Shown in pieces: positions 4,592 through 64,000 of a DNA stretch of 64,000 nucleotides. Origin of the DNA: Patescibacteria group bacterium UBA661. GTDB taxonomy: Bacteria > Patescibacteriota > Minisyncoccia > Phycocordibacterales > UBA918. The DNA lies in contig DBNX01000018.1 of NCBI GenBank assembly GCA_002299465.1, forward strand, positions 11,987 through 75,986, given 5' to 3'. The translations under genes were made by a program, and so were the position numbers. The notes under the pieces are model-generated. The model saw only the letters and a list, made by a program, of their open reading frames with translations. It did not search any database and was not told the origin of the DNA. Within the stretch, counting starts at the first letter, position 1; each line of letters begins with the position of its first letter.

Positions 4592-4593
4592 GT

Positions 4594-11374: not shown

Positions 11375-11384
11375 TTATTTAAAA

Positions 11385-41036: not shown

Positions 41037-41849
41037 ATGTGCTATTGTGTAAGGATGATTCAATTAGAATATACAAAAGAAATCACTGATACTGGCCTCT
41101 CTAAAGAGCAGGCGGTTGTGTATGAAGTCTTATTAAAGCTTGGGGAATCCCCAGCAAGCGCTATTGCGAAGGCAATTCCAAATGGCACTACACTGTCTCG
41201 ACCACTTGTATATAAAGTGCTTGAGGAATTGATTGGTCTTGGTCTAGCCAGTAAATCGGAAGAAGCTAATAAAATTGCCAAGTTCACTCCAAAGCACCCC
41301 GTGGCTATTACGAAGGTGATTGACGAGCAGAAAGAGCGTATCGAACGCACGAAAAAGCAGTTTTTGGCTACATCAGGCAAGCTCTCATCACTCTTTAATC
41401 TGAGTGTCGGAAAGCCGGGGGTTCAATTCTATGAAGGTGAAGACGGGGTGTGGGAGGTACTTATGGATAGTCTTTCTGCTACCGAGGAGATTCTCACCTA
41501 TGCTGATCTTGAGGCTATCACCAAATATATCCCGGCACTTAATGCCGAATACTCTGCGCTGCGCGAGGAACAGGATGTGAAGAAACGTGGACTGGTGATT
41601 GATTCACCAGAGGCACGAAAGTTCCTCAAGTCATACGACGGCAAGGTCACGAATACCAAGCTCATTACCGCTTCAGAAGGCTTTTCACCATTTCAGACTG
41701 TGGTTCAGATATACGACAACAAAGTATCGTATATCACGCTCACTGATGAATATCTGGTGGGAGTAATTATTACTGACCAGTACATTGCAAATACACACAA
41801 ATATCTCTTTGAGAGTCTGTGGAAGTTGAGTAGCGGAGAAGTGATCTAG
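41037..41849 (+). CDS. TrmB-family winged-helix transcriptional regulator
   Basis: N-terminal LSKEQAVVYEVLLKLGESPASAIAKAIPNGTTLSRPLVYKVLEELIGLGL matches the TrmB HTH. Confidence 0.7.
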   Translation: MCYCVRMIQLEYTKEITDTGLSKEQAVVYEVLLKLGESPASAIAKAIPNGTTLSRPLVYKVLEELIGLGLASKSEEANKIAKFTPKHPVAITKVIDEQKERIERTKKQFLATSGKLSSLFNLSVGKPGVQFYEGEDGVWEVLMDSLSATEEILTYADLEAITKYIPALNAEYSALREEQDVKKRGLVIDSPEARKFLKSYDGKVTNTKLITASEGFSPFQTVVQIYDNKVSYITLTDEYLVGVIITDQYIANTHKYLFESLWKLSSGEVI

Positions 41850-44263
41850 GCCGCTTTCTTCAAATCCTCTTGCGGTGGAGTGAACTCGTCTCGGAGGGTG
41901 TCACTGAGCTTTTCAAAGACGAGATATGTCTTGCCTTGGTGTGTGAAGTATCGAGTTAATCCCATAGCATTTTGTAGCTCGGGATAGGTTTCAGCGCTTG
42001 ATTGTTCGCGAACCACAATTGACCCAGATTCTTCAGTCTGATTCAACAGTTCCTCAATTGATTTCTGCTTGCTTTCGAGTTGTCTGGTTGAGTCTTTAGA
42101 GCGCCAGATTTCAAAGCTTGGTTTACCAGCGAGTGAATAGAATCCGGTAGCAACAAAACCATCTTCAATATATTTTTTAGTGATTGCCTGCGTGGGGTCA
42201 CAGTGAGCCATCATGGGGCGACCGTTCCCAAGCTGATCCTTGATGGTTTCTTCAAGCATTATTCCACCGACACCACTGTATGCCGGATCGGCGTTAAAAG
42301 AACCGAAGTACGACACTTCTTTCCCAGTATAGTCGCGAAGCGTATCAAAGCGGTTGAAACTGACAATCTTACCTTGGTCGCGCAATATGCGATATGTTGT
42401 GTTTGGGTTATCAAAACTTTTCACGAGTGAACCAGCTACCGTTGCCTTAAATTCATTATTTTCAGGTTCTGGGTACGCCGTATCATAATTCTTTCTGAGG
42501 AGTTCCTGCATACGAACCTTATCTTCTTCGGTTAGAGCCTCGGGTGAGACCGATTCAATTTTTTCTGTGCCGACTTCTTGGAGTAGGGCAACATACTCTT
42601 TCGCAGCCGCTACATAGTTTTCGATTTGTGAAGCAACCTCGCTTGGATTATGTGCTCGCACTGCTTTTTCAAGATCCTTTTGTGCTCTGTTTAAAATGTT
42701 TTCGCGGACCTGATTTGCCAGATCGGTACATAGATCTCCCTCGCAATTAGATACTTCGCGGACCAATTGCTCTGCACGATCAGCACTATTAAGGAGGTCA
42801 CTGTAATATCTAAAAACCGTACCCGCGACTTCCTCATGCTGACCGAAAGCAACGATGTTGTCGCCAAGTGTTTCGTCTCCTCGTTCAAGCGATAGAAAGG
42901 TGCGCATTCCGTTGACACCGTAGCGTGAAGTAAATTGTTTTATGGATTCAATAAATTCAGGAGTAACACTCTTCAGGTAGTTGAGAAAGAAGTACTGTTC
43001 CTTTAGGTTCAAGTCAAGTAGCTTAAAACCAAAGGCTTTTTCCAATGATGCACGCACACGGAGATCCATAAGTGATCGATATTCAGCAACACCATCATTA
43101 CTTACTGCCGAACCACCGATACCTCTACTTTCGAGAAGGTTCTTGATGGTTATTGGTCTATAGTTACCTTGAACATCTCTCTCAATTACATAGAATGCGT
43201 CGTTGGCAACATAATCAGCAAAACAATCTTTTGTTAGGCCGAGCATCAGGCTAGCTCTGTCGTGTATATGGAAAGATTCAACGGATCTATTTGCGTTTGA
43301 TTCTTTTATTAACGCATCAAGCTGATTTTCTGAAATGGTTATTTCTGAACCGTCAGTGTAATCATTATTTGAATTTCCCCACGCTTCCATCACTGCATCG
43401 TACTTGATTGTTTCAAAAACCGTGTGAAGGCGGGGCTCTAGTCTATTCTCAATATAGTCAATAAGCACATACCTGAAACCAACATCGCGATACTCATGAA
43501 TTCTTCGATCAATCTCATGTACAGGATCATCAAAAGCATCATAATCTTCTTTTTCCAATTCTTGTGATTGATATAGAAGATCAATCACCATCGGTATTCG
43601 TCGAGGATCGATGTTTTTTATATCAAAGTAGGTATCGATAGCATCAAATACACCTTCTATGTCAAGGTCTGATTCATGTCTAGCATATCCAAGGATGCTT
43701 ATAATATCACTGGAAATCTTCGATCTCCAACCAAGTGTCGAGAGGGGGTCTTCGTTGCGTATAATCTGATAGAATCTTTGCCACTCATTATCAAATTTAG
43801 AAATATATATATCACAATCAAGATCGTCCCACTCACCGTCTCCTGTATAGAGTTTTTTAATTAAACGGTTTATGTGCAAGTTCTCGAATCTCTCCCCGTT
43901 CAGGTCGAGTTGTGCGTATACGGCATGTTCTTGTTTTTCGTATTCTGCTACTATATTTTCATACTCCTGGTAGATTTGTGATATCTGCCCAATTGTTGTT
44001 TCTAAATACGTTGTGCCAATGTCAGGGAGTTTCTCTAAGATTCGTTCAATTACATGACCATTTATTTTTTTAAGATTTGACCCAAAGTAAAGTACTAAAA
44101 ACTCTCGCACATCACCTACGCACTGGGGGTGATTTCGAAAATAATCCCCAATCTCCGGCACTGCTGGAAGTTCGGATTCTATGCGCTGAATCGTTTCGAG
44201 TCGTTTATCTTTTAGTGCTATCGACTCGGCTTCTTTGTTGATAATGGCTGGTCTTTCAGACAT
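41846..44263 (-). CDS. large hypothetical protein (805 aa), acidic, no recognised domain
   Basis: Uninterrupted 2.4-kb ORF convergent with the TrmB gene. Confidence 0.6.
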   Translation of the reverse strand: MSERPAIINKEAESIALKDKRLETIQRIESELPAVPEIGDYFRNHPQCVGDVREFLVLYFGSNLKKINGHVIERILEKLPDIGTTYLETTIGQISQIYQEYENIVAEYEKQEHAVYAQLDLNGERFENLHINRLIKKLYTGDGEWDDLDCDIYISKFDNEWQRFYQIIRNEDPLSTLGWRSKISSDIISILGYARHESDLDIEGVFDAIDTYFDIKNIDPRRIPMVIDLLYQSQELEKEDYDAFDDPVHEIDRRIHEYRDVGFRYVLIDYIENRLEPRLHTVFETIKYDAVMEAWGNSNNDYTDGSEITISENQLDALIKESNANRSVESFHIHDRASLMLGLTKDCFADYVANDAFYVIERDVQGNYRPITIKNLLESRGIGGSAVSNDGVAEYRSLMDLRVRASLEKAFGFKLLDLNLKEQYFFLNYLKSVTPEFIESIKQFTSRYGVNGMRTFLSLERGDETLGDNIVAFGQHEEVAGTVFRYYSDLLNSADRAEQLVREVSNCEGDLCTDLANQVRENILNRAQKDLEKAVRAHNPSEVASQIENYVAAAKEYVALLQEVGTEKIESVSPEALTEEDKVRMQELLRKNYDTAYPEPENNEFKATVAGSLVKSFDNPNTTYRILRDQGKIVSFNRFDTLRDYTGKEVSYFGSFNADPAYSGVGGIMLEETIKDQLGNGRPMMAHCDPTQAITKKYIEDGFVATGFYSLAGKPSFEIWRSKDSTRQLESKQKSIEELLNQTEESGSIVVREQSSAETYPELQNAMGLTRYFTHQGKTYLVFEKLSDTLRDEFTPPQEDLKKAA

Positions 44264-50023: not shown

Positions 50024-51307
50024 ATGGAAACACAAAAGTTAACGTGGTCATCCACCACTCGTAAGGTAAAGGACCTTACACCAAATGGATACAACCCGAG
50101 AAAGATAAGCAATGATCAAAAGCACGACCTGCAGAAATCGATTGAGCAGTTTGGTGCGGTAGTGCCAGTTGTACTGAATATCGGTTCCCGAGCTAATACC
50201 CTCATCGGAGGAGAACAGCGACTAAAAATCTATGCTGACCTCGGCTATACCGAAGTCGAGTGTATGATCCCGTCACGAGAGCTGACTCTCGCTGAAGAGC
50301 AAGAACTAAACCTTCGTTTAAACAAAAATACAGGAGCATGGGATGAAGAGCTTTTAAAGAACTTTGATCTTTCTCTGTTGCTTGATGTGGGATTTAACGA
50401 GGATGAGATACAAGACTTTTTTGACGATGTCGAAATTGCTGATGATGATTATGATGTTGAGAAAGGACTGGAGGAAAATGCCACTCCAAGGGTAAAGGCT
50501 GGAGAGATATGGCAACTCGGTGACCATCGCCTACTCGTGGGCGACTCGACTGATAAAGAGTTGGTCGCTAAACTGATGGGCGAAACGAAGGCCCACTTCA
50601 TCTATCAAGATATGCCCTATAACATTGGGCTTTCCTATGACAAAGGTATCAGTAACCAAAAGCAGTATGGTGGCGAGTATTCAAGCTCAAAGGACTCGAT
50701 GAGTGATGAGAAGTACTACGCTTTTATTGAAGCTAGTATTAGTACTGCCAAATCTATTGCCCACACCAATGCCCACTGGCTGTACTGGTGCGATGCTCGC
50801 AATATAGGATCAATTCAAGATCTATACAAACAGTACGGTATTCATTTTAGGCGTGTCTGCTATTGGGTAAAGAACAACCAAAACATGACGCCTCAGGTGG
50901 CATTTAACCGAGTGCACGAGCCAGCTGTCTATGGCACTACTGGTAAAGCGTACCTAAACAATAACCTCAAGAACGTAAACGAGATCTTGAATCAGGAAGT
51001 GACGACTGGAAATCAGCTTCATAACGAGTTGCTCGATATGATCGACCTCTGGATTGTGAAGCGTGACAATGTGCAAGGGTACCTACACCCGACCCAGAAG
51101 CCGGTTGGTCTGAGCGAAAAGCCAATCAAACGATGTACCGCTCCCGGTCACGTTGTGTTCTCTGGTTTTGGTGGAAGTGGGAGCGATTTGATTGCCTGCG
51201 AGCAGTTACACCGAAAGTGGTATGGGGTTGAACAAGACCTTGTCTTTGCGAGTGTCATCATCGACCGCTGGGAGAAATTTACCAAGCTAACCGCCAAGCG
51301 AGTATGA
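50024..51307 (+). CDS. ParB-like nuclease domain fused to an N4/N6 DNA methyltransferase (beta class)
   Basis: N-terminal ParB/Srx-like region. DMPYN (DPPY variant) and FSGFGGSGS (FxGxG). Confidence 0.75.
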   Translation: METQKLTWSSTTRKVKDLTPNGYNPRKISNDQKHDLQKSIEQFGAVVPVVLNIGSRANTLIGGEQRLKIYADLGYTEVECMIPSRELTLAEEQELNLRLNKNTGAWDEELLKNFDLSLLLDVGFNEDEIQDFFDDVEIADDDYDVEKGLEENATPRVKAGEIWQLGDHRLLVGDSTDKELVAKLMGETKAHFIYQDMPYNIGLSYDKGISNQKQYGGEYSSSKDSMSDEKYYAFIEASISTAKSIAHTNAHWLYWCDARNIGSIQDLYKQYGIHFRRVCYWVKNNQNMTPQVAFNRVHEPAVYGTTGKAYLNNNLKNVNEILNQEVTTGNQLHNELLDMIDLWIVKRDNVQGYLHPTQKPVGLSEKPIKRCTAPGHVVFSGFGGSGSDLIACEQLHRKWYGVEQDLVFASVIIDRWEKFTKLTAKRV

Positions 51308-52077
51308 AAACCGTAATGACTGGAGATATCTATTCTGTTGGAAGTCACATAGTTGGGTGCGGCGATTCACTCGATAAGGACTTTGTTGCCAAGGTAGTGG
51401 GTACACACAAAATTCAAGCGGTTGTGACCGATCCGCCGTATGGAGTGGCGTATGTTGAGAACAAAGTAGGAGTAGCTCAGCTTGGCAAAAAGGATGCCAA
51501 GGCTATCAAAGGCGATCACATTCAAACTGAGTACGAATACGCTCGCTTTACCCAGTCATGGGTTGAGGCAGTATTACCTCACCTCGACTCATACAACACC
51601 TTCCATATCTTCAACTGTGACAGTATGTTCCTCGCTCTTCGGACAGGTATGCAAACCGCAGGGCTACACTTCAGCCAGATGTTGATCTGGATTAAGAATC
51701 AGTCTGTTATGGGACGAATGGACTATCTGCCACAGCAAGAGTTGATTGCCTATGGTTGGTATAAAAAGCACAAGCGGATTAAGGCACAAATGAGCAGTGC
51801 GATTTATCATCCGCGACCACAGAAGTCGAAGCTCCATCCTACGCAAAAACCAATAGGCCTCTTACGCCGACTTATCTTGAATGTCACTAATGTTAACGAC
51901 TGTGTCTACGACGGCTTCTTAGGGAGTGGTAGTACAGCCCTTGCTTCTGAACAGCTCGGTAGAACCTGTATTGGTATTGAGCAGGATGCTGAGTATGTAG
52001 AAATATGTCTGAAGCGACTGGAAAAGCTCACTAAGAAAGAGCGGGTATTAATCATGAGCCATGAACCGACCCCATAA
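51304..52077 (+). CDS. N4/N6 DNA methyltransferase (beta class), a paralogue of the MTase half of the upstream gene
   Basis: VVTDPPYGV and DGFLGSGST. The HPTQKPIGL block is shared with the upstream gene. Confidence 0.8.
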   Translation: MKTVMTGDIYSVGSHIVGCGDSLDKDFVAKVVGTHKIQAVVTDPPYGVAYVENKVGVAQLGKKDAKAIKGDHIQTEYEYARFTQSWVEAVLPHLDSYNTFHIFNCDSMFLALRTGMQTAGLHFSQMLIWIKNQSVMGRMDYLPQQELIAYGWYKKHKRIKAQMSSAIYHPRPQKSKLHPTQKPIGLLRRLILNVTNVNDCVYDGFLGSGSTALASEQLGRTCIGIEQDAEYVEICLKRLEKLTKKERVLIMSHEPTP

Positions 52078-52447
52078 TGAAAAACCGCATATTGGCGTCT
52101 ACCGCAAGCAGGACTTTGTTACCTATGTCACATGGAAGTCACTCCCTACGTTTCTACGAGGTCAACCTGAAACGGTCCTTCGCAAAATGGGTATTGATGA
52201 CGATATGGCAATTGAGCTTCTTCAGATCAAAACCCAGCGAGACTTTGCTGAGCGATTTGGTATTAAAGACCTCGGGACGCTGACTGACTGGAATAAGCGA
52301 ATTGAGGATGAGGGCTTAGTTGAGCATATCAATACATGGGCACGGAAGCTGACACCAAACGTCGTCTTGGCTTTGTATAAAAATGTCACAAAGCATGGAA
52401 AGTCGAAGGAGGTAAAGACGTGGTTTGAAATAATCGAAAACTTTTAA
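52061..52447 (+). CDS. hypothetical protein (128 aa)
   Basis: ORF in an operon with the MTases. Confidence 0.4.
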   Translation: MNRPHNEKPHIGVYRKQDFVTYVTWKSLPTFLRGQPETVLRKMGIDDDMAIELLQIKTQRDFAERFGIKDLGTLTDWNKRIEDEGLVEHINTWARKLTPNVVLALYKNVTKHGKSKEVKTWFEIIENF

Positions 52448-52449
52448 GT

Positions 52450-52662
52450 ATGAACGAAACTAAAACATCACTAGGACTAGCTGAGGTAAATGAGATCCTC
52501 TCGACTGCTTTACTACAGGTCACGACTGGCAAGATTTCTCCAAAACGAGCACAGGTAATTTCTCGGATCGCATTGGCTCTCTCAAAGAACATCGCAAACG
52601 TTGAACTCAAGCAAAGAATTGATGTCCTCGAACAGATGCTGCTGGAACGTAAAAGAAAATGA
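52450..52662 (+). CDS. small hypothetical protein (70 aa)
   Basis: ORF with overlapping stop/start chaining. Confidence 0.35.
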   Translation: MNETKTSLGLAEVNEILSTALLQVTTGKISPKRAQVISRIALALSKNIANVELKQRIDVLEQMLLERKRK

Positions 52663-54128
52663 AAGATTTAACTAAGATAATTCAAAAAGGAAATCTGACA
52701 CCTCGGGAACGAGCATTATTGATAGTGAGACACGATGCCCAGCTGGAGCAGACAGGTAAGGCTTTACTGAGTGAGGCTGATTTGGTGGCTTTGACTAACT
52801 GGAGACCGGTCACTAACTATGAAGCCGAGCAATACAACAAAGTGATCACGCTCTGGGATCTGTATCAGAAACTACAAATTGATATGCAGACCTGCTATCT
52901 GACTACTCAATTAGCTTTGTCCCGTCTGCAGAATTCAGCCAGCTTGCTCTACCATAGAAGCGATAGTTTTAAGCAGTCACGACCTAATATCAATAGCCGT
53001 CTTTGGGTCGAGAATGATGCAGAATTTCAAGCATACTTTTTAGAGCATTCAGGCTATGAGTATGACCGTCTGACCCATCTTTATACATTTCACTCCCTAC
53101 CAAGCACTATCCAAAAAGACATCCTACTCCTAGATCCTAGTGTGAAGTATGACCATACGTATTTCTCTCAAGAAGAGCAGATCGCAAGAATCATGGGTGG
53201 TAAAAAGACCTTAAACGCCGAAGGTGTTGAAGCTCTCACAAAAGCGATTGTAGACTCAATACCGTGTGGTCATGAGCTTAGGTTACCAAACGCTCAAATA
53301 AGCTTCAGAGAAGTCATTTTCAATCTACACTTCGCTGGCTATCCAATTATGGAGTTCGGCAGGCGTCTGGCTTCTCGCCACAACATTACGTATCAAAGTG
53401 AGGATGAATTGCGAGACAAGTTAAGTGAGATAGATGACTTGCAGTATAAGCTTGAAAAGGTTGTTCGCGATGCCGTTAGTGACGGGTCATTTTTCGATGA
53501 CTTTACGCCTTTATGTCTGAGTCACGGTCACCTTACTCACGAAGGCAAAACTAGACTTCCACACGACAGACTCATGCACGAATGGATACAAGCTAAAGAT
53601 ACAGTACTTAAAACTCTAGAAACCCATATCGATACTGGCGAATTGGAAGTCCGTGAATGTCCGACACGATTTTTTGAGGTAAGTATAAATAAAACATACG
53701 TCACCGGCACAAGCCTAAGTCAGGCAAACCTTTCGCTTCCGTTCCTTAAAGATTTCCAATCACAGATAGATGAATATTCACATTACTGTCTTCCGGTATT
53801 TTTACTACACAAAGCAACTGCTTTTGAGAACTACCAGTACCTGCTCAAATTTAAAGAGATCAGTCTAGAGCTATCTGAACTACTTGGAGTGGATCTGTCG
53901 CAAACCATAGAGAGTCACCTTGAAGCCGTTCGTGAATCGGTTGATACTCTAAATTTTTATCTGCGACAAATATCTGATCTTAGGTTAGAAAAGGTTTATA
54001 AGTCAGACATCGAGTATCCCTTACAAGTCTTTATACCTGATCCAAGCCTAGTACTCAGTGGTTTACCGCCTAAACAAAATGAAAGCCTTGAGATCTTTAG
54101 TGAGAAACTAGAATCTCTCGTACGTTAA
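52659..54128 (+). CDS. hypothetical protein (489 aa)
   Basis: Long ORF convergent with the defence-like cluster. Confidence 0.5.
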   Translation: MKDLTKIIQKGNLTPRERALLIVRHDAQLEQTGKALLSEADLVALTNWRPVTNYEAEQYNKVITLWDLYQKLQIDMQTCYLTTQLALSRLQNSASLLYHRSDSFKQSRPNINSRLWVENDAEFQAYFLEHSGYEYDRLTHLYTFHSLPSTIQKDILLLDPSVKYDHTYFSQEEQIARIMGGKKTLNAEGVEALTKAIVDSIPCGHELRLPNAQISFREVIFNLHFAGYPIMEFGRRLASRHNITYQSEDELRDKLSEIDDLQYKLEKVVRDAVSDGSFFDDFTPLCLSHGHLTHEGKTRLPHDRLMHEWIQAKDTVLKTLETHIDTGELEVRECPTRFFEVSINKTYVTGTSLSQANLSLPFLKDFQSQIDEYSHYCLPVFLLHKATAFENYQYLLKFKEISLELSELLGVDLSQTIESHLEAVRESVDTLNFYLRQISDLRLEKVYKSDIEYPLQVFIPDPSLVLSGLPPKQNESLEIFSEKLESLVR

Positions 54129-54790
54129 GCAACTTTTTCAGTATAGTCACACTTCGGATACGTACTGCATCCAAGGAATGCTCCGTATTTACCATTTCTT
54201 TTTACTAGATCACTCCCGCACTTTGGACAGAAGTGGGTGGTACTTACAGGGACTAAGGGAACATCCACCATCTTCATATATTCCATTAGTTTGAATTTAT
54301 CGACGAGTTCAATCGGCTTGTCCTCAGCAAACTTTTCAGCATCTAGGGTAAAGACATTGGTGGTAATAAAGAAAGACTTTCCGCCATCGATTCTATCCGC
54401 AATAGCTCCGTAAAAATCCCGAACCGCTCCGACTGGTACTTTAGAGGTAATAAACTTCTTGCACTGGATGTAGTGGGCGTGACCGTCTTTCTCCGCCTCC
54501 ACATCTACACCACCATCACCTTTACCGCCCGTTACTCGAGTCTTGTATCCAAGACGCTGGAACAAAACAGCAATGTAGTCTTCAAATTGTGCAGGAGTTA
54601 GCTTCTGTAATTCTTGCACTTTCTTTTTACCTAAGAGCCACTTGATTTGGCTTCGGCGACTCATGAGATCGACTACAATACGAAAAGCTAGAGCGAGAAC
54701 CACAATGCCAATCATCATGAAATACAGCTCTTTCATTGCCCACATGCCCTGTAGTATTGGTATTAATAGGTTTGATGAGGAAAACTCCAT
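54125..54790 (-). CDS. membrane-anchored Mrr-like restriction endonuclease with a C-terminal topoisomerase-type C4 zinc ribbon
   Basis: N-terminal TM helix. Mrr_cat-like GGKGDGGVDVEAEKDGHAHYIQCKKF. CPKCGS…CSTYPKCDY. Confidence 0.7.
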   Translation of the reverse strand: MEFSSSNLLIPILQGMWAMKELYFMMIGIVVLALAFRIVVDLMSRRSQIKWLLGKKKVQELQKLTPAQFEDYIAVLFQRLGYKTRVTGGKGDGGVDVEAEKDGHAHYIQCKKFITSKVPVGAVRDFYGAIADRIDGGKSFFITTNVFTLDAEKFAEDKPIELVDKFKLMEYMKMVDVPLVPVSTTHFCPKCGSDLVKRNGKYGAFLGCSTYPKCDYTEKVA

Positions 54791-54811
54791 ATCTAGTATG
54801 ATAGCAGATGA

Positions 54812-56320
54812 CTATATCTGCTTAATTACTTTCCAGATTTCAACCATCGCCAAAGTGTCCAAGTGACAATATTTTCGCAAGGCTTGAATTTTACCCTCAG
54901 CTTCCTCTTTTGAATATTCACCAGATACAATTCGATTCCACGTATCAGCCGCAGCACCTCCTTCTTGAATCTCTAACTCTTTGTAAGATAACTCAGGCAC
55001 TAAGGCTGGCAAGACAAATTTAATCGATGACTTACCAAGAAAGTTCGGATGCCAATATACAGCAGTCTTTCCATCAAACGGTTCGATAAGGTCAACAATT
55101 CTATCCTGAACGCTTGTAATAAAAGTAGCATCTGAGGGTAGTCTCTGAGCAATCTGATCGTTGATTCCTTTCTCAAACCTTTCGCTCCAAACCAACACAC
55201 TACCAGTAGGAGGTAAGTGTCTTTTCATCGCTTCAACAAATTGTTGGTCTGGATTTGAATTATCAATGTGAAGAAAATCTGCGTGCTGAATCTCACCGCC
55301 CTCTTCGTGAATTATATGAAGTGAGAACTGGAATGGTATCTGCTGGTAGGGGCGGTAACCAGAAAATCTTGGTATTGCTGACGGGTATGTCTCGTAATCA
55401 ATAAAAGCCAACGGGTACTCTAATTTACTCAAGAAGGCCTCGAGCCCTTCTTGATCAATTATGGTTCTGCCTGACTGAGCCACGTCAACCTGTTTGCGCT
55501 GGTTATCCGATAATTCAAAATCATGAGGCACATGTTGAATATCAATTACTTCACTTTCAACTAGAGCTGAGAGCTTCTTAGGACTTAATCCTATTCGAGA
55601 AATTTGGTGCACTGAGTATTCAGGGGTGTCAGGATTTGAGTACCAGAAAGTGGTGCAGTGGTTACTCTTTGATTTAATCCAGCAATCACAGTGACCTGCA
55701 GGTTCTTCGACTCGATTTATATACTCATGAACTCCTGCCATCTGACTAGAAATATCATCAACTATAGCCTCAACATCCTCGGTTATATCTTTGATTATAA
55801 AAAGTTCTTTGATCGAAAGGTCTCCTGAGCGTACATAACTTTTGTCGAGTCTGACCAAATGAAGTTTACCGACTGGTATGGCAAGATTATCCATAACAAT
55901 CTTTTGAAACGCAACGTCATTTTTATATTCCTCAGCTCGTCTGCCTCCCTCGCCTTCGTGGGTAGCGGTTGAAGACTTTACCTCATACAGATCGTAGACT
56001 TCAGTCTGGTTATTCCAGACGATAATGTCAGCAATTGCTGAGTACTTATCGCTGATAAAGACTGGCTGGTAAATAATTGGTGTACGTTTAGCAATAAGTT
56101 CATTAGTATACGCAGAATCTGTACGGTCTTCGACCAGCACACCACCAGGGAATAGCTCTCTAGCAAGAGCGTCGATCTCATTACCCGTATCGATAATATT
56201 TAACTCAAAAGCAGATAACTCTTTGGCGTGATAAATATCTGGCTTGTGAACCTTTAACCAAGCATTTTTATTGCAGTTTTTAGATATTAGAAAATCAGTT
56301 TTAGTTAAAATATGATTCAT
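54812..56320 (-). CDS. DUF2779-like protein: N-terminal PD-(D/E)xK nuclease plus C-terminal DEDD/RNase-H-like exonuclease fold
   Basis: ADIIVWN…YDLYEVKSS (D…ExK). FIDYETYP … YCHLDTLAMVEIW. Confidence 0.6.
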   Translation of the reverse strand: MNHILTKTDFLISKNCNKNAWLKVHKPDIYHAKELSAFELNIIDTGNEIDALARELFPGGVLVEDRTDSAYTNELIAKRTPIIYQPVFISDKYSAIADIIVWNNQTEVYDLYEVKSSTATHEGEGGRRAEEYKNDVAFQKIVMDNLAIPVGKLHLVRLDKSYVRSGDLSIKELFIIKDITEDVEAIVDDISSQMAGVHEYINRVEEPAGHCDCWIKSKSNHCTTFWYSNPDTPEYSVHQISRIGLSPKKLSALVESEVIDIQHVPHDFELSDNQRKQVDVAQSGRTIIDQEGLEAFLSKLEYPLAFIDYETYPSAIPRFSGYRPYQQIPFQFSLHIIHEEGGEIQHADFLHIDNSNPDQQFVEAMKRHLPPTGSVLVWSERFEKGINDQIAQRLPSDATFITSVQDRIVDLIEPFDGKTAVYWHPNFLGKSSIKFVLPALVPELSYKELEIQEGGAAADTWNRIVSGEYSKEEAEGKIQALRKYCHLDTLAMVEIWKVIKQI

Positions 56321-56323
56321 AAA

Positions 56324-59300
56324 TTATTTCTTATCTTCAGTCCAAGAGCTTTCGGTTCTCACACCTTTCGAGATACGTCCGATAACTGCGTTATCGCTCA
56401 ATGAATAAATTATTCCAAAGAATTGGGTTTTGAAACCGAGCATGGTCTTAACTCTTACAGAAATTGCAAGCTTGCCATGGTCAGGGGACATTTTGAAATA
56501 CTCTAGTTCTATTTTTCTATTCTTTAGAGTATTAGTTATATTTTCAGTAACAGACTGGATGTTTTCGATTTCTTCGTGACTGCGCAATGTTCCATCTAAC
56601 AGATCCCCTAAAATCTTGAATTTACTACCCACTGAATCACTGACAGTATATTTAAAATGGTAAGGCAAATTAGACAATCTGCACATGATGATATCGTCAG
56701 GATGATAAGGTGTAGCATCCCAAGTACAAGACTGGGCTTCAACAGGCAAACAATATTTGCCTGTTGAAGATTTTACCCCTTCGCTTTCGATGAACTTTGC
56801 TTCCGAAACGCTGCTTGATTCAAAAAATTTCTTCAACGCTTTCTTTCCCGAAAGAGAACTTTTCTCTAGTAGGTTTGGCATTACCTTTTTGCCAGATACT
56901 GAACATTCTTCGAGCAAACCCTTTGTCACTGAACTCTCTGATACTTCACACTTTTCTGATTCTTTAGGAAGTATAGGATTATCCGTGATTGCACAAAGGA
57001 TGAACTCAGATTTATGACCAGTCTTTCCTGAAACAACAGATTTAGATTCTTCATCAATACGGTACTTCTTACCTGAAACCTTACTCACAGCTAATTCCGT
57101 TTTAAGAACGGTTACGTCTGAAAATTCGCACGTATCAAACATTTCAGGCTCAGCCTTTTTTCCGCTTATTGGAGAACTAGCGATAAGCGAGTTTAACACT
57201 AGTTTACCGGTAACATCAGACTCGGTTAGCTGATCCTCTAGCACTTTTTTTCCAGATACTGAACACTCCTTTAGTAACCCTTTCTTTACTACTTTCCCAG
57301 TTATTTCACAAGTTTCTGATTCTTCAGGAGCAATTAAATCATTTGTTAGAGCACAATTAATGAATTCACTTTTATGTCCAAGCTTACCAGATACAGAAGA
57401 TTTTGACTGTTCGTCAATTCGATATTTTTTATTTGAGATTTCACTTATTGCCAATTCTTCTTTAAGAACCTCAGTATCAGAAAATGCGCAGGTATCGAAA
57501 GATTCTGGCTCTGCCTTTTTGTTACTTAAGGCTGAGGTCCTAATAAGTGATGTAAGTATAAATTTCCCTGAAGTGTCTGACTTAACAAGCTCATCTTGAA
57601 GCACCTTTTTACCAGTCAGTTCGCATGGGTGTATAAATCTTTTTAATGCATATCTGTCACTCACTTCAGACTTGATGAGTAAATCTTTATTCACTAGTAA
57701 CCCACTTAAATCACAAACTGAAAGGCAATCTACTGGCAAGCTTATCTTTGTTTCTTCACAGACACCCATCTCTGGTTGAGAGGTGATTTCCCCAGATGAT
57801 GGAATTAAGGTGAGTTTACTTTTATAGATTTTGTCTGAGTTGAGAGAATAAGAAACTTCAACAATTACTTGTCTTCTGACGTAGCCTTCGAGACCGACAA
57901 GGGTTAATTCAACTCGAGGAGTGAAATCATTCTCAATCTTCTTTTTCTTTATACTATTATCGCCCGTATTATTTAACTCATGGGCTAACCTTTCATTATA
58001 GAAACGACAAAACTCAGAAATCCCTTCATTTGACATCACCTCTTCAGATAGTAACTCTTTAGAAATTCCAATTGTCCGAACGTCTGTGATGAAGGAATCT
58101 TGTAGTGGCTCAATTGCTTCACTGTCAGCTGGACCGATATGCTCATAATGAGAACATATGACATCGACTAACCGTTCATAACTATCATGAGCAACTGTAA
58201 CTCGTGCCCTCACTAATGCAGAACCGCTGTATGTTTTTCTTATTTTCCCAATTTTTATATCATCAAATTTCCCCTTAAATTCTTTAAGCCATTTCTTAAC
58301 CTCTTTATTTGCCTGATCGACAAGATGATCATCCGCATCTTCTACTCTGTGAAGACCTACTTTTGTTAAAGTAACAATTAGTTTCTCAAACGCTGGACTA
58401 CCTGGGGCGTAAAGTACATTTTTGAAGAGTGACCCGTCTGGTATAGGTAGGCTTAAATTATTATCAAAACGAATCATTTCCAACCTACCATCCAATTCAG
58501 ATGAATAGAGATTTGGTGTTTTTTCGACTAGTTTAGCTCCGAGGCTTTTCAACCCATCGATAACCAAATCCTTCGCTTCCATCGACTGAATGGTCCGAGG
58601 TAATGAGGGGCAACGTGGACCTTCATCATCACCCATTTTCCCGAGCAGATTGTTTATATTGGACTCTTCTTTCTTTAGCTGCTCTTTTGCCTTTTCAATA
58701 CTTGCTACAGTTCTTTCGGCTGCTTTTTTAACATCTTTTCCCTGCAGTGATTCAAGAACCAGTTTAAGAATCTTATCCTCAAAAGCTTCGCCACTATCTT
58801 CTCCTTCACTGATACCCGAGGCCTCTAGCAAGGATTCAATATCGCCAATTGCACTTGATGCTAACTGAAGTTTCTCCATCAGTCGTCCTACTACATATTC
58901 CTCAAATGTCTTATCAAGAACAATGTTAAAAATAATCACTTTCTCATGCGGTGATCCAAGACGTTGAATACGCCCAATGCGTTGCTCAACCACCATTGGG
59001 TTCCAAGGCAAATCGTAATTAACCAAGACATTAGCAATTTGCATGTTGACCCCTTCCGAGCCAGCCTCTGTAGAGATAATGACATTTATTTTCGGCTTGT
59101 CTTCTCGAAACTGTTCAAGAGTATCGACATTAAGAGAACCAGTTGATCCATTTATTAGACCGCAAGATACACCTTTATTTTCGAGGAAGTTTTGAATTGA
59201 GGTTTGAGTCTCCAAACGAGTAGTGAAAATAACAACTCGCCAGTCATCAGGTTTTTCGGCTCGAAGTTTATCGATCAAACTTTCGAGACCCTGAAGCTTG

Positions 59301-60406
59301 GCTGTTATTTCAATTCTCTTAACCACCTCATTCACAGCCTCATAAAATGGTTTTTCTATCGTTCCTTTTTCTGACATTCTTCTGAGAAGTAAAACAAGTG
59401 CTTCTGGACTACTTACCAATGTCTTTAAAATTCCAATTTGAGTCAAACGATCCAGCTTCCCAATTGAGTCTGCTACGATTTTTATTATCTCTAATTCTTC
59501 TGGGGACGGATCGACTGAATGTAAATGCACCTCTCTTTGAGGAAAGTGCAGATCAGCATCTCCTCGTCTGACTCGGGACATGTACCGATAGATGATTCCA
59601 CGAAATTCTTCTTGTGCTTCTGGGCGAAGCCTTCTGGCATCAGCTTTGTTGTCAGCAATAAACTTTCTTGCGAACATTCCAGGATTACCAAAAGGGTTTT
59701 CATGTCCTCGTGCGACTGTAAGAAGTTCAACTAGCGAATAAAGATCCCAGAGTCTATTCTGAATAGGGGTGGCGGTAAGTAGTAGTACGTATTTAAACCA
59801 CCGCTGGGAGAGAGCTTGTTTAAACTTTAAAGCTACTTGTGGTGCAACTTCAGTCCCGTGCAGGTTTCTTAACTTATGTGCCTCATCAAGAATAAGCATA
59901 TCGAATCCAGCGTGTTCAAGTGCATCAAGATGCATTCGAGCCGAGTTGTATGTAGTTATTACTGCACCAATTTCGTCAGGTGGTTCAGCTGTCTTAAGAT
60001 CTTTTCCAGTAGCAATAACTGAGGTGATTCCAAATTTAGTTTTTAACTCCTCTTGCCACTGTGGACCAAGAATTTTAGGGCATACAATGAGGATTTTTGA
60101 TAAACGACCTCGTGATATCAGCTCACTAGCAACCAACCCAGCACTGATTGTTTTACCGAGTCCAACATCGTCGGCAAGCAGGGTTACAGGCAAACGCCTA
60201 CAAAAGTTAATGAGGTTTGAAACTTGATGATTAAATGGATCAACTTTGTCTTGCCAAAAAGCTGATGATTTCAGGTCGTCTCTTTTCTCAATTACGATAG
60301 GGTCAATAAGATCCCATTCCAAAGCTGCTTTGTATAAAAGATAGTCATTAGGATTACTGGCGTGTCTGACGGGTTTTATTTGTATAGTGATTTGTTTGTC
60401 AGACAT
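56324..60406 (-). CDS. SNF2-family helicase (1360 aa) with an ~800-aa C-terminal extension that contains tandem Cys-containing repeats
   Basis: DVGLGKT (motif I), LILDEAHKLRN (DEAH), helicase C motifs. Two ~360-bp tandem repeats at 56885-57610. Confidence 0.8.
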   Translation of the reverse strand: MSDKQITIQIKPVRHASNPNDYLLYKAALEWDLIDPIVIEKRDDLKSSAFWQDKVDPFNHQVSNLINFCRRLPVTLLADDVGLGKTISAGLVASELISRGRLSKILIVCPKILGPQWQEELKTKFGITSVIATGKDLKTAEPPDEIGAVITTYNSARMHLDALEHAGFDMLILDEAHKLRNLHGTEVAPQVALKFKQALSQRWFKYVLLLTATPIQNRLWDLYSLVELLTVARGHENPFGNPGMFARKFIADNKADARRLRPEAQEEFRGIIYRYMSRVRRGDADLHFPQREVHLHSVDPSPEELEIIKIVADSIGKLDRLTQIGILKTLVSSPEALVLLLRRMSEKGTIEKPFYEAVNEVVKRIEITAKLQGLESLIDKLRAEKPDDWRVVIFTTRLETQTSIQNFLENKGVSCGLINGSTGSLNVDTLEQFREDKPKINVIISTEAGSEGVNMQIANVLVNYDLPWNPMVVEQRIGRIQRLGSPHEKVIIFNIVLDKTFEEYVVGRLMEKLQLASSAIGDIESLLEASGISEGEDSGEAFEDKILKLVLESLQGKDVKKAAERTVASIEKAKEQLKKEESNINNLLGKMGDDEGPRCPSLPRTIQSMEAKDLVIDGLKSLGAKLVEKTPNLYSSELDGRLEMIRFDNNLSLPIPDGSLFKNVLYAPGSPAFEKLIVTLTKVGLHRVEDADDHLVDQANKEVKKWLKEFKGKFDDIKIGKIRKTYSGSALVRARVTVAHDSYERLVDVICSHYEHIGPADSEAIEPLQDSFITDVRTIGISKELLSEEVMSNEGISEFCRFYNERLAHELNNTGDNSIKKKKIENDFTPRVELTLVGLEGYVRRQVIVEVSYSLNSDKIYKSKLTLIPSSGEITSQPEMGVCEETKISLPVDCLSVCDLSGLLVNKDLLIKSEVSDRYALKRFIHPCELTGKKVLQDELVKSDTSGKFILTSLIRTSALSNKKAEPESFDTCAFSDTEVLKEELAISEISNKKYRIDEQSKSSVSGKLGHKSEFINCALTNDLIAPEESETCEITGKVVKKGLLKECSVSGKKVLEDQLTESDVTGKLVLNSLIASSPISGKKAEPEMFDTCEFSDVTVLKTELAVSKVSGKKYRIDEESKSVVSGKTGHKSEFILCAITDNPILPKESEKCEVSESSVTKGLLEECSVSGKKVMPNLLEKSSLSGKKALKKFFESSSVSEAKFIESEGVKSSTGKYCLPVEAQSCTWDATPYHPDDIIMCRLSNLPYHFKYTVSDSVGSKFKILGDLLDGTLRSHEEIENIQSVTENITNTLKNRKIELEYFKMSPDHGKLAISVRVKTMLGFKTQFFGIIYSLSDNAVIGRISKGVRTESSWTEDKK

Positions 60407-60410
60407 ATGA

Positions 60411-63400
60411 TCATACTGGCATCAATTTATCTATCTCCTTCATGAGTTTGATTGTTTCACTTAATGAGACGATCATTTTTTCGTAGTTCTCGAATTCAGC
60501 AGTAGTCAGTTTGTGATCCTTGCGATCCTTGAGGTACTTTTGAGCTGGCTGGTAACCACCCACGTAAAATTCCCAAACCTCTTTGGGGACGCCATCCCAA
60601 TACTGGGTATCGTTTATGTACACTTTGTTATTTTTGTATACAGGTTTTACCACAACATCAGAACCTGCTTCAGGGAAAGATGTGATGCATTTAATGACCT
60701 GTTTCTGGTCTAGGAGGTGTATCTCACGTAAAGATCGACCTAAACTAACAAGGTCCATATATTGCTTCTTTGAGGTTGGATAAGGTACACGAGGGAAATT
60801 AGCGTTCAAAAATTCCTTATATTTCAATCGATATGAAGGTGAATATAAATAGGCGTATACATAGTCAAGAATATCCTCAGGGGTAGTTTCTTGTGATGTT
60901 TTCTCAATTTGCGAGACAATCGACTGATCTAAGTTAGGGATTTTCTTTTCACCTTCGTAAATATACAAAGGACACACTACCTCTCCACCTCGGCGGAAGA
61001 AATTTAGATCTACTGGCGAATTAGAAATAAAAATAGTGTCATACTCTTTTGGATTTGCTGCACCACCTTGTCTACTAAACAGCAGTGCCAAATTGTCCGA
61101 GTGGAGCAAGTGCTGCATTACAGAAATACGCGGACGCCACACCAAACCAGTTGTTAAAGAAGTGTATCGTTTGTCAAAGGGCCTGTAATTTAGTGGTGTG
61201 AGAGTCTTCTTAAAATCACCAATTTTATTAGCCCGTTTATTTTCGATGACCCATCGAGCATAGTTTTTACCAAGTGAGTATTTCTCCGTAAGGTATGACT
61301 CAGATACATCATTCTCTAACAAATTATCGATTCTATTTACTAAATCATTCTCACTACTAGATACGATGAATCCATCACCAAGGGTAAATACCCCCGTTGT
61401 ATTTTTAGGAAATAAATCAGCCAGAGAAAAACCTTTCATGTATTCGCTTTTACCTTCACCCTCTATTCTCCATATATCTGCGTCGTCGGGTAATTTATTC
61501 CATTTAACTGACTCTATACTTGATTTAGATAGCTCAATAAATTTCTCAGACCTTTTTCCATATAAATCAGCAATGTAGACATCAGCAAGTTTTTTTGACT
61601 TGTCGATCGATGATTTCTTGACTCCAAAAATTATTGAGACTCCAGTCTTGATATCAAATACGTTCACGTCAGGACTACCATCTGGAGCCGTTTCTTTTTT
61701 GGTCGAATTTCCATGTAAGTCAAAGACATAAATGGAGTCAAAAGTACTTCGTAAATGCCATCTCATTCCACGGAATGACAGGTTGTCGATATATCCGTGA
61801 TTTGTGATCATTCCAACAATACCTTCTCCATTTTTTTCGACCATGCTTTCAGCAAAGCGAATAAATTTAACATAATCATCATCAAGAAAATTCTTATCTT
61901 CCTTGAGTTTTTTCAGACCTCCTGGTTCAACTTTATAAACTTGATTGTCAGTGTAATGTAAGTTTTGTGAAACTACAGAATATGGGGGATTACCCATCAC
62001 CACCATGATAGGCGTATCATTCTTCACTTCAGAAGCAAGTCGACTTTCTTGAGCAATACTGTCTACAACTCCAAAGAGAGAACTGGTTAAAGGTATGTCA
62101 TGAGCGTCATCAAGTGTGTTGCTGAGGTAGACACCCAGTCGCTTTCCGAACTTCTGTACACCACTCTTCTTGAGTGTCATGGCAAGTTTAAGATGGGCAA
62201 TGGTATAGCTTGCCATCATAAGCTCAAAGCCATGCAGACGAGGAAGCAGATCGTCCTCTACATAGGCATTCCAGCGACCCTGATTCGCTTTCTGGGACTC
62301 GTGAATATGATTGACAGTCTCGTTCAAAAAGGTACCTGTTCCTACAGCAACATCGAGCATCTGCACTCGGTGTATCTCACGAGTATCTTTAATAGTTTTA
62401 CCTCGTTCATCGATATGCGATTTTGTAACGGTGATTTTTTCATTATCAGCCAAACCTTTAGCAATACCGAATTCACGCTTAAGAAGTTCATCAATACCTC
62501 GAATAATAAATCTGACCACTGGTAGCGGTGTATAAAAAACACCCATCTCCATCTTCTTAGATGGGTCGTATTCACGGAGAAAGTCTTCATAGAAGTGAAT
62601 AACAGGATCTGGACTTTCATGGTCAGTGCCGAACAAATCAGTTGTCTTAAAGTAGTCCTCCATCAAAGCTTTTACATCAGCATGTGTAAAGACTTCGCAA
62701 AGCTCATTAACGATAAGCTCCAGTCGGCGTGGGAATGATGTACCAGAAATATGGTCAAAGAAGCTCTTTAGGAACGGGTTAGTAGCTGGCACCAAGTCAC
62801 GTGCTTCTTGTCTACTAAAGCTAACGAGGGACTCATCATTGTATCTCGCAGCAAAAAGACCGTAGACGAGTGTTTGAGCGTACATGTCAGCAAAATCCTC
62901 GTCAGTAAAATTTTCAATAAGGTGTTCTTTGATAAACTTACGCATTCGTATTAGTTCATCTTTGTCAGTACTTTCGGTCTGAAGGAAAGCAATTACGTTA
63001 TCTCTAATACGCTGAGCCTTACCGCCCATAATCTTCGCGAGATGTTTTCCGCTCTTGATTGGCTCTTTTTGACTTTCGATAAAGTCCTGCATTGTCCTAA
63101 CAAGACGTTCCGCATTTTCTGGCTTAAGAGAAACTGCTCGAGCTTTAACCTGAACATCACCAAGAGAAATCGTATCGTCATATCTCTGACCGTTTCTGAA
63201 AAAACGAAACTCAACATAGTCACTGATGATCAGGTTGGTGTAACCGAAGTATCTATCAGCTTGATTTGAGTTCTCAATCTTATTTAAATCTTCTCCGACT
63301 TTTTTAACTTCAATATACAAAAGAGGGACTTTGTTCTTGAGGACAATATAGTCTGGTTTGTTACCGTTTATAGCACGCTGATCCTGCTGAATAAAATAAC

Positions 63401-63548
63401 CCTCTGTTTCAGGAAAAATAGTTGCTAAGTAATTTTGAAATGATGTTCTATATGAATGTTCAGAACTGTTTTCATCTTCAAAGTACTTGGCTATCTCAGA
63501 AAGATAGTCGTTTACTGAGTACATATAGTTATTTATAGCATAAAACAA
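60411..63548 (-). CDS. MmeI-like (Type IIL/IIG) single-chain restriction-modification protein: PD-ExK nuclease plus gamma-class N6-adenine MTase plus target recognition domain (TRD)
   Basis: N-terminal KPDYIVLKNKVPLLYIEVKKVGEDL…ADRYF (cf. MmeI VDLFWPGILLIEMKSRGKDL). NPPY motif (VVMGNPPYS). Confidence 0.7.
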   Translation of the reverse strand: MFYAINNYMYSVNDYLSEIAKYFEDENSSEHSYRTSFQNYLATIFPETEGYFIQQDQRAINGNKPDYIVLKNKVPLLYIEVKKVGEDLNKIENSNQADRYFGYTNLIISDYVEFRFFRNGQRYDDTISLGDVQVKARAVSLKPENAERLVRTMQDFIESQKEPIKSGKHLAKIMGGKAQRIRDNVIAFLQTESTDKDELIRMRKFIKEHLIENFTDEDFADMYAQTLVYGLFAARYNDESLVSFSRQEARDLVPATNPFLKSFFDHISGTSFPRRLELIVNELCEVFTHADVKALMEDYFKTTDLFGTDHESPDPVIHFYEDFLREYDPSKKMEMGVFYTPLPVVRFIIRGIDELLKREFGIAKGLADNEKITVTKSHIDERGKTIKDTREIHRVQMLDVAVGTGTFLNETVNHIHESQKANQGRWNAYVEDDLLPRLHGFELMMASYTIAHLKLAMTLKKSGVQKFGKRLGVYLSNTLDDAHDIPLTSSLFGVVDSIAQESRLASEVKNDTPIMVVMGNPPYSVVSQNLHYTDNQVYKVEPGGLKKLKEDKNFLDDDYVKFIRFAESMVEKNGEGIVGMITNHGYIDNLSFRGMRWHLRSTFDSIYVFDLHGNSTKKETAPDGSPDVNVFDIKTGVSIIFGVKKSSIDKSKKLADVYIADLYGKRSEKFIELSKSSIESVKWNKLPDDADIWRIEGEGKSEYMKGFSLADLFPKNTTGVFTLGDGFIVSSSENDLVNRIDNLLENDVSESYLTEKYSLGKNYARWVIENKRANKIGDFKKTLTPLNYRPFDKRYTSLTTGLVWRPRISVMQHLLHSDNLALLFSRQGGAANPKEYDTIFISNSPVDLNFFRRGGEVVCPLYIYEGEKKIPNLDQSIVSQIEKTSQETTPEDILDYVYAYLYSPSYRLKYKEFLNANFPRVPYPTSKKQYMDLVSLGRSLREIHLLDQKQVIKCITSFPEAGSDVVVKPVYKNNKVYINDTQYWDGVPKEVWEFYVGGYQPAQKYLKDRKDHKLTTAEFENYEKMIVSLSETIKLMKEIDKLMPV

Positions 63549-63695
63549 CGAAATACGCTTATATTACGGGGTGAAATCGTCATTTGAGTACCTTAACTTA
63601 CATTAGGGGCTTTGCGAAGTATTTGCCTACTCAAAAGCCTAGACTTATGTGGGTCGTTGCGTCATTGATGTGTTTGTATGAATCAAACAATATCA

Positions 63696-64000
63696 ATGCC
63701 ACACGGGACCGTTATTCAGGAAATAGTCCCGACAAAGGTCAAATACTGCCTCTACGCCCGAAAGTCGACAGAATCTGAGGAACGCCAAGTCCTATCGATA
63801 GATAGCCAGATTAAAGAAATGCTCCAGATGGCTGATCGAGAGTGTCTAGAAATAGTTGAAATGAAGCGAGAGTCTCACTCGGCTAAGGAGACTGGTCAAA
63901 GGCCAGTGTTCAATGAAATAGTCGAGGAAATACGTGAAGGTAAATACAACGGTATCCTAACGTGGGCACCAGACCGCATCAGTAGAAATGCTGGAGACCT
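63696..64000 (+). CDS. serine recombinase (resolvase/invertase catalytic domain), 5' end only. The gene continues past the window.
   Basis: MPHGTVIQEIVPTKVKYCLYARKSTESEERQVLSIDSQ… is the Ser-recombinase catalytic motif. The frame is open to the window end. Confidence 0.75.
   Translation, partial: MPHGTVIQEIVPTKVKYCLYARKSTESEERQVLSIDSQIKEMLQMADRECLEIVEMKRESHSAKETGQRPVFNEIVEEIREGKYNGILTWAPDRISRNAGD

Follow-up and report, generated by a model that had tools for sequence, protein, structure and literature searches.

The stretch analyzed here, referred to below as the window, comprises 64,000 nucleotides (nt) of Patescibacteria group bacterium UBA661 (GenBank assembly GCA_002299465.1, contig DBNX01000018.1, positions 11,987 to 75,986). 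Toward one end of it lie four closely packed open reading frames (ORFs), all on the minus strand: g1 (60411..63524), a restriction-modification (RM) enzyme; g2 (56324..60406), a SNF2-family ATPase; g3 (54812..56320), a DUF2779 nuclease; and g4 (54125..54790), a putative membrane-anchored Mrr-type nuclease. Spacers of 4, 3, and 21 nt separate them, which confirms the coordinates and the 3-21-bp spacing given in a first-pass annotation. That annotation had also labeled the cluster “defense-like,” which is upheld here, and had proposed that it might form a single composite system, a distributed variant akin to Type ISP or DISARM, a proposal that is not. The comparisons described below make it likely that the region is instead a patchwork segment of a defense island beside a large serine recombinase, containing three separable units: g1, g2 together with g3, and g4.

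The predicted g1 product is a single chain with an N-terminal PD-ExK nuclease, a gamma-class N6-adenine methyltransferase (MTase), and a target recognition domain (TRD) of the kind found in Type ISP enzymes. A Pfam scan gave Type_ISP_C (2e-69), N6_Mtase (9.5e-10), and a weak match to HSDR_N over the nuclease block (3e-5), and no helicase or ATPase family; the REBASE-derived Type IIG profile in PADLOC (REase_MTase_IIG, PDLC03610) spans the protein end to end (5e-254). In a Protein Data Bank (PDB) search the best match was DrdV (2e-37), with LlaBIII (8e-35) and LlaGI also among the nearest; the LlaBIII and LlaGI alignments are confined to the MTase-TRD halves of those enzymes (LlaBIII residues 792-1521). 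Across 22 homologues, down to 53% identity, the motifs P65-D66...E80-x-K82, DxAxGxG (399), and NPPY (520) are invariant (residues P65, D66, E80, K82, D399, G403, G405, and N520-Y523). Family members have uniform lengths of ~1030-1045 amino acids (aa), and some carry the NCBI name “type ISP restriction/modification enzyme.” The mechanical ORF extends to a TTG at 63548 (60411-63548); public gene calls, which record the exact product, start at ATG 63524 (1037 aa), and this is probably the biologically used start.

The initial description of g1 as a 1045-aa MmeI-family protein was thus right about the PD-ExK and NPPY motifs, probably a few residues too long, and imprecise about the family: MmeI_Mtase scores 19.1 bits, below its cutoff of 27, no other MmeI domain came up, and no MmeI chain appears among the PDB matches at E<=0.01. 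Type ISP was considered as well and set aside. LlaGI and LlaBIII share a homologous MTase-TRD module with g1, but the g1 chain lacks the SF2 ATPase domain that they carry between nuclease and MTase, and the adjacent SNF2 gene is dispensable, both in sister islands (see below) and for solitary g1 homologues, including one at 64% identity that stands alone among the cell-division genes mraZ/ftsI/murE (locus L180; comparison loci are cited by L numbers). The combination of nuclease, MTase, and TRD in one motor-free chain with intact catalytic motifs, its solitary homologue, and the existence of sister islands without SNF2 are those of single-chain Type IIG/IIL enzymes, and g1 is a new member of that known class. 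DrdV itself is a bifunctional Type IIL enzyme, motor-free and ATP-independent, in which cleavage is licensed on the gathering of several unmethylated sites (bioRxiv 10.1101/2021.01.06.425610). The likeness of g1 to DrdV and other Type IIG enzymes lies in a single ATPase-free chain of ~1030 aa with a PD-ExK nuclease, a gamma N6-adenine MTase with NPPY, and a C-terminal TRD; g1 differs in that the sequence alignment with DrdV covers only its MTase-TRD part, and in that its gene lies within a variable island, next to helicase and nuclease genes. Judging from homology, g1 should be an autonomous, ATP-independent RM enzyme of the DrdV kind, because the Type IIG profile covers its full length, DrdV is the nearest structure, its family is uniform in length, and the 64% homologue is solitary. 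By analogy with DrdV, one chain would recognize an asymmetric site, methylate one adenine, and cut at a distance once several unmethylated sites are brought together.

The 1360-aa g2 product has a SNF2-family ATPase/translocase core (Pfam SNF2-rel_dom, 2.6e-28; Helicase_C, 9e-19; motifs GLGKT, DEAH, and QRIGR present) followed by a family-specific C-terminal extension of ~770 aa. The Cys-containing repeats already noticed there are more orderly than the first annotation suggested: between aa 898 and 1183 the motif [CS]-x-[LIV]-[ST]-G-[KR] returns exactly every 15 residues, in an array of ~20 copies covering aa ~883-1200 (56807..57760, minus strand). The repeats are organized into a 120-aa super-repeat that is itself duplicated (83/125 identities; self-alignment score 429 vs. 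36 ± 7 for shuffled sequences), and this larger unit is present once in family members of ~1235 aa and twice in those of ~1350-1360 aa. The extra super-repeat of one homologue, P0017, occupies a position different from that in the window protein. Three further SNF2 ORFs (L109, L112, L113) are 1746-1921 aa long, with several hundred extra residues toward the C-terminus, presumably more copies of the 15-aa/120-aa repeat. The repeat region matches no Pfam family; in an AlphaFold2 model of aa 590-1360 (mean predicted local distance difference test score, pLDDT, 84.9), each 15 residues form a strand-turn-strand-loop unit. Homologues from different phyla are alike along the entire protein, at about 50% identity, and many are solitary, beside ordinary genes; a tblastn search with the g2-specific region found zero matches in 72,556 plasmids and 50,697 phages. 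The SNF2 motor would translocate on double-stranded DNA, with the repeat array probably serving as a long binding or scaffolding arm.

Downstream of g2, g3 encodes a DUF2779 protein (PF11074, 2.8e-36; 125 bits vs. a cutoff of 23.3), in which a Cas4-like PD-ExK nuclease with four cysteines is joined to an RNase-H-like 3'-5' exonuclease domain of the DEDDy type. Both sets of catalytic residues are invariant among 26 sequences (D98/E113/K115 and C16/C211/C213/C222 in the Cas4-like part; D308/E310/D410/Y484/D488 in the DEDDy part), in accord with the PD-ExK plus DEDD assignment made at first reading; with the g1 alignment, this answers the doubt as to whether the claimed motifs would survive proper alignment. 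With their motifs intact, the g2 and g3 enzymes look active. No PADLOC model matches g3. In the literature, DUF2779 is a dual nuclease of undescribed role that combines a Cas4-like part with a MrfB-like DEDDy part; one representative, MMSYN1_0389, is quasi-essential in JCVI-syn3.0 (PMC13621843), and DUF2779 and COG2251 (PF13482) have been grouped as related exonuclease families, both with PD-ExK domains (Majorek et al., 2014; PMC3985635). Across small-genome Patescibacteria, DUF2779 proteins are 57-63% identical between classes and mostly solitary; they are rare in IMG/VR (7 loci).

The last gene, g4, encodes a 221-aa protein with an N-terminal transmembrane helix (a single hydrophobic helix at aa 22-40, KD19 = 2.55), a Mrr_cat nuclease domain (1.3e-26; 93.4 bits vs. 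a cutoff of 21, over the full-length profile), and a C-terminal topoisomerase-type zinc ribbon (Zn_ribbon_Top1, 2.4e-16) supported by its Cys pattern, all as first annotated. The Pfam scan reports no N-terminal DNA-binding domain in the style of E. coli Mrr; in its place are the membrane helix and the C-terminal zinc ribbon. The protein also matches the Mrr-like end of the PADLOC ZorD profile (6e-15). It is most simply read as a membrane-tethered variant of Mrr-type nucleases, and it would likely act as a stand-alone, Type IV-like restriction nuclease; it travels with g3 in close relatives only.

Several catalogued systems resemble parts of this cluster, and none accounts for it. Partial PADLOC matches of g2 include DrmD (3e-59), the helicase part of ZorD (4e-33), and, over the helicase core alone, BrxHI; in bits, it falls below all the curated cutoffs: DrmD (209 vs. 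610 for NF038317, 201 vs. 950 for NF038318), ZorD (54 vs. 1500, NF041790), RapA (136 vs. 576), and DpdE (164 vs. 500). The helicase DrmA, DrmB (DUF1998), and DrmC (PLD) are absent from the window ORFs scanned, as are PglZ, BrxC, and BrxL, so that the earlier exclusion of DISARM and BREX stands. As in DISARM class 1, the SNF2 helicase adjoins a large N6-adenine MTase-containing protein; however, g1 is not DrmMI but a restriction enzyme complete in itself, and the g1-g2 order is reversed relative to the SNF2-MTase pairs of L148, L163, and others. Zorya type I was rejected on the ZorD score and on the absence of MotA/OmpA-type genes from the cluster. Zorya likeness consists in g2 and g4 each matching parts of ZorD, and in a sister island that holds a full Zorya II in the SNF2 slot; the differences are that the window has no ZorA or ZorB, that g3 separates g2 from g4, and that g4 is membrane-anchored. 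A “split ZorD” made up of g2 and g4 was likewise discarded: the scores are far under cutoff, g3 intervenes, and g4 co-travels with g3 rather than with g2. The statement that the cluster matches no single catalogued system therefore holds.

The gene order was followed through a neighborhood census anchored on 80 species-level DUF2779 loci and 31 g2-family SNF2 loci. The full four-gene order occurs in none of either set, and was found only in a near relative, L006 (g1 78%, g2 88%, g3 93%, g4 88% identity), where an OLD/AriA-like ATPase precedes the RM gene; the conserved neighborhood expected of a composite system did not emerge. About 74 of the 80 DUF2779 loci have no g1-, g2-, or g4-type partner within 10 kb. 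A g2-family SNF2 gene stops 4 nt before DUF2779 in L038 (1/80), and a g1-type RM gene lies 1-3 kb upstream of it in L054 and L055 (2/80); the two are separated in L054 by a gene for an uncharacterized protein and in L055 by toxin-antitoxin-like genes (Fic, SocA/Panacea). Among the same loci, a g4-like gene is clear in L024 and a weak match in L039. No g1 or g4 homologue accompanies any of the 31 g2-family genes.

Sister islands show what happens to the arrangement over shorter distances. Their flanks remain close to those of the window (recombinase 96-99%, DUF2779 83-95%, and ParB-MTase 82-94% identity), and what lies between RM and DUF2779, here called slot X, is exchanged. In L174-L177 the order is DUF3644 - RM (76%) - PIF1/AAA_30 helicase - DUF2779 (95%) - Mrr (89%), between a recombinase 99% and two methylases 94% identical to those of the window. 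In L090/L091 it is DUF3644 - RM (86%) - ZorB2/ZorA2/ZorE2 - DUF2779 (83%) - Mrr (78%), the three middle genes being typed by PADLOC as Zorya type II (ZorB2 1.7e-67, ZorA2 2e-58, ZorE2 3.6e-37). L178 has RM (78%), a 499-aa protein with no identity assigned, a 99-aa ORF, DUF2779, and HEPN, without Mrr; in L089 the SNF2-DUF2779 pair is preceded by an unrelated MmeI-type RM gene, also without Mrr. The L174, L090, and L006 segments adjoin the same recombinase, and L090 and L174 also share the ParB-MTase block. The recombinase-to-DUF2779 stretch is a hypervariable cassette site, of which SNF2 is one of at least four alternative slot X occupants. Since these occupants alternate, and one of them is a complete independent system, the segment resembles a rapid-turnover defense island rather than a fixed machine; the extra optional gene, the RM allele, and slot X would be turned over by cassette replacement among sister strains.

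Other catalogued or candidate defense genes also occur near the sister islands (ThsB_TIR, SduA_C, and PDC-S19, which is DUF3644); the ThsB-type TIR and Shedu SduA_C genes lie around the same recombinase, at 1172-1819 in L174 and 1-1333 in L090. The Zorya type II of L090/L091 (7042-10004) is complete and in B-A order (ZorB2-ZorA2-ZorE2). Zorya relies on a membrane-embedded ZorAB motor, and for this reason its presence in these Patescibacteria may be worth examining.

Could the four genes nonetheless form one integrated system, in which RM marks self and recognizes foreign DNA, SNF2 translocates, and DUF2779 and Mrr are added effectors? The shared strand and the 3-21-nt spacers fit such a scheme, as do the frame of RM, slot X, DUF2779, and Mrr kept in sister genomes, the RM genes upstream of DUF2779 in the distant L054 and L055, and the fact that all slot X occupants with an assigned identity are motors or contain one (SNF2, PIF1, ZorAB), which leaves aside the 499-aa protein in L178. 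In addition, g1 has the MTase-TRD module of a Type ISP enzyme without its ATPase, and the translocation activity built into the Type ISP chain might here be supplied in trans by SNF2, which is a similarly improbable suggestion. Against these points, Zorya II is a complete catalogued system by itself, g1-type enzymes are covered in full by the profile of stand-alone Type IIG enzymes and are found as solitary genes, and neither g1 nor g4 accompanies the g2 family outside close relatives (0/31). The SNF2-DUF2779 pair of L089 sits with an unrelated MmeI-type RM gene and no Mrr, HEPN stands in Mrr's place in L178, and toxin-antitoxin-like genes (Fic, SocA/Panacea) are among those that intervene in L055. 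An integrated four-component system is accordingly judged improbable.

A variant of this idea, more improbable still, is that the conserved frame of Type IIG RM, slot X, DUF2779, and optionally Mrr works as a single system with an exchangeable motor (SNF2, PIF1, or ZorAB-type), which would make it a version of Type ISP or Type I restriction divided into modules. RM would then mark self and non-self, and the motor would couple recognition to processive destruction by DUF2779 and Mrr; this division of labor is just as improbable. The patchwork reading, with g1 and g4 as units of their own, is preferred to both.

The sole recurrent association among the four genes, as shown by comparative genomics, is the pairing of g2 with g3. 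A gene for a Cas4-like PD-ExK nuclease plus RNase-H-like 3'-5' exonuclease is adjacent or fused to the SNF2 gene in 15/31 g2-family loci, besides the window and L006, which hold the pair as well; in the same scan such a neighbor was found in 0/45 loci of other SNF2 helicases (Fisher p = 1e-7), a control set from the metagenome scan that includes L148, L163, L166, L167, and L170-L173. The partner is of the DUF2779 type in L038, L089, L092, L096, L097, L098, L100, and L111, and of the PDDEXK_1+RNase_H_2 type in L103, L108, L110, L121, L122, and L124; in L008 the nuclease is fused to the N-terminus of the SNF2 protein (P0102). Both gene orders are found, with convergent transcription in three cases. 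A BLASTP comparison of g3 with the P0102 N-terminus revealed no direct homology; what links them is the shared architecture and the grouping of Majorek et al. (2014; PMC3985635). In the control loci, the gene directly after SNF2 typically encodes an MTase-containing protein of 1200-1400 aa, an arrangement like that of DISARM class 1 or BREX.

Above the family level, the g2-g3 pair matches no PADLOC 2023 system, and a literature search on DUF2779/PF11074/COG2251 and on SNF2+Cas4+exonuclease anti-phage combinations found no functional study of the pair or of an SNF2 partner. The pair is an uncatalogued variant of the helicase-plus-nuclease theme seen in MrfA/MrfB, Hachiman (HamA/HamB), and AddAB/Cas4, with a distinctive motor. 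As in those systems, the motor is encoded beside the nuclease, and DUF2779 is similar to MrfB in its DEDD half and to Cas4 in its N-terminal half (PMC13621843). The differences are that the g2 motor, with its unique array of 15-aa repeats, belongs to the SNF2 translocases and not to the DExH/DUF1998 or Hel308-like helicases, and that the g3 nuclease, which has no PADLOC match, joins two catalytic domains. The g2 motor would work with the g3 dual nuclease, which would degrade or resect DNA, the target being either invading DNA or damaged host DNA. A role in defense is quite plausible, at or a little short of an even call.

If the target is host DNA, the pair could be a helicase-exonuclease for DNA repair or maintenance, like MrfAB or AddAB, that merely sits beside defense genes. 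The quasi-essentiality of MMSYN1_0389 in JCVI-syn3.0 and the resemblance of the DEDD half to the repair exonuclease MrfB (PMC13621843) point this way, as do the high identity and mostly solitary occurrence of DUF2779 across Patescibacteria classes, the roughly 50% identity of g2 across phyla, the absence of the g2-specific region from the plasmid and phage collections, the few DUF2779 loci in IMG/VR, and several g2 loci in metabolic contexts (purL, thiolase, MFS) or beside RecQ/HhH-GPD. Other g2 and DUF2779 loci, however, lie among TIR, STAND, GmrSD, SIR2+DUF87, HsdR, RM, or toxin-antitoxin genes, or serine recombinases; SNF2 behaves as exchangeable cargo in this island; and DUF2779 pairs with many unrelated NTPases (HerA, ResIII, AAA_13, UvrD, SF1+REase), which is typical of defense modules. 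A repair role is on balance somewhat unlikely, and slightly less favored than one in defense.

The many NTPases suggest a further possibility: that the functional unit is slot X plus DUF2779, a generic effector nuclease driven by whatever NTPase or motor lies upstream, with RM and Mrr as independent neighbors. Directly upstream of DUF2779, on the same strand and at gaps of 0-140 nt, are HerA/DUF87, ResIII, AAA_13, UvrD, SF1+REase_MTES_1575, and AAA+ proteins (for example, L010 7689-9995, L016 2534-4747, L065 6145-9996, and L077 8110-9987, in the set L009-L088), at least seven families in all, with SNF2 and PIF1 in addition. Because these immediate upstream NTPases come from so many families, DUF2779 may be a promiscuous nuclease module reused with many motors. 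In the related COG2251 architecture, this nuclease pair is joined to an SF1 helicase in one protein (L103; PMC3985635), and the ZorE2 and DUF2779 reading frames of L090 share 4 nt. The opposing evidence is that an NTPase neighbor is present in only about 10-12 of the 80 loci, in a biased sample in which large upstream ORFs alone were tested, that Zorya II as catalogued needs no fourth gene, and that most DUF2779 genes have small, unrelated neighbors. A generic slot X-DUF2779 unit is thus considered unlikely, and the specific partnership of g2 with a dual nuclease is kept.

Some observations touch DUF2779 more generally. One locus has a TPR-PIN protein as its upstream neighbor. L092 contains two DUF2779 paralogues less than 6 kb apart (3637-5127 and 10001-11497), one after a GmrSD - SIR2_2 - DUF87 block and the other after a g2-family SNF2 gene. 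NUDIX genes are found close to DUF2779 in L092, L089, and L178.

Several points weigh against the division into g1, g2 plus g3, and g4. No nuclease partner accompanies g2-family genes in 16/31 loci, and DUF2779 is without a partner in about 74/80. The 15/31 figure overstates the number of independent events, because some of the loci are related (L097, L098, L111). The local adjacency of g2 and g3 could be incidental, since DUF2779 is a conserved flank of the variable slot and persists where SNF2 is missing. Conversely, RM, slot X, and DUF2779 may be functionally coupled, given that the spacers stay very short in all variants and that RM precedes DUF2779 in the distant L054 and L055. ORFs in the compared loci were called by a simple longest-ORF heuristic.

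Whatever their functional relations, the three separable units are probably co-transcribed, and their tight spacing is compatible with this. A scan for promoter-like sites gave 13, fewer than chance (24 ± 5 in shuffled sequences), and a terminator scan gave a count at chance level; neither result bears on operon structure. The 3' end of g4 has a 4-nt convergent overlap with a plus-strand gene at 52659-54128. At the other end, divergent from g1 and starting 130 bp upstream of it, is the large serine recombinase, identified from its translation, which forms the conserved left flank of the variable segment; its 5' part (63678..64000, plus strand) runs to the window edge, where it is cut, and is 99% identical to the Resolvase/Recombinase/Zn_ribbon_recom gene of L174 and 96% to that of L090. 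In the right flank (50024..54128, plus strand), likewise conserved, a ParB_N-DNA methylase gene is followed by a second methylase gene (N6_N4) and by ORFs of 128 and 489 aa, neither ORF having a Pfam, PHROG, NCBIfam, or PADLOC match; the whole block is syntenic in L090 and L174 at 52-94% identity. Its two DNA methyltransferase genes (50024-52077), the first one fused to a ParB N-terminal domain, overlap each other, and could be orphan methylases from a former mobile element.

The cluster's GC content (0.37-0.42) is lower than that of most of the window (0.45-0.49), and its named homologues are from Patescibacteria, mostly Paceibacteria. The host DNA is a Patescibacteria (Paceibacteria-like) chromosome; SecY, FtsH, RecG, and transfer-messenger RNA (tmRNA) genes mark it as chromosomal, and phosphoketolase and acetate kinase are also encoded in the window. 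A phage or plasmid origin was considered and rejected, the 9.4-kb cluster having zero megablast matches in phage and plasmid collections. The tmRNA gene (23374-23771, minus strand; tag peptide ADKAVPSPYARAFGFAPAFA) is probably not the integration site of the island, from which it is 30 kb away. A tRNA-Ile with anticodon TAT (UAU) lies at 30254-30327 (minus strand), between RecG and an HlyD/FtsX-type transporter operon; in most bacteria AUA is read by a modified CAU tRNA. An 805-aa ORF (41846-44263, minus strand) without Pfam, PHROG, or NCBIfam match lies where the GC content of the window, the cluster apart, is lowest (0.385-0.415).

What had looked like a new four-gene system is better described as neighboring modules of a fast-turnover defense island, a correction that at the same time gives a strain-resolution view of defense hotspot turnover in Patescibacteria, whose immunity is little studied. 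The comparison also isolates a candidate: an SNF2 translocase with an unprecedented 15-residue array, together with a Cas4-like/DEDD nuclease at about half of its loci, in several phyla. If the pair is anti-phage, a helicase-nuclease system missing from PADLOC 2023 would be gained; if it acts in repair, DUF2779, which is quasi-essential in the minimal cell JCVI-syn3.0, would acquire its first functional partner.

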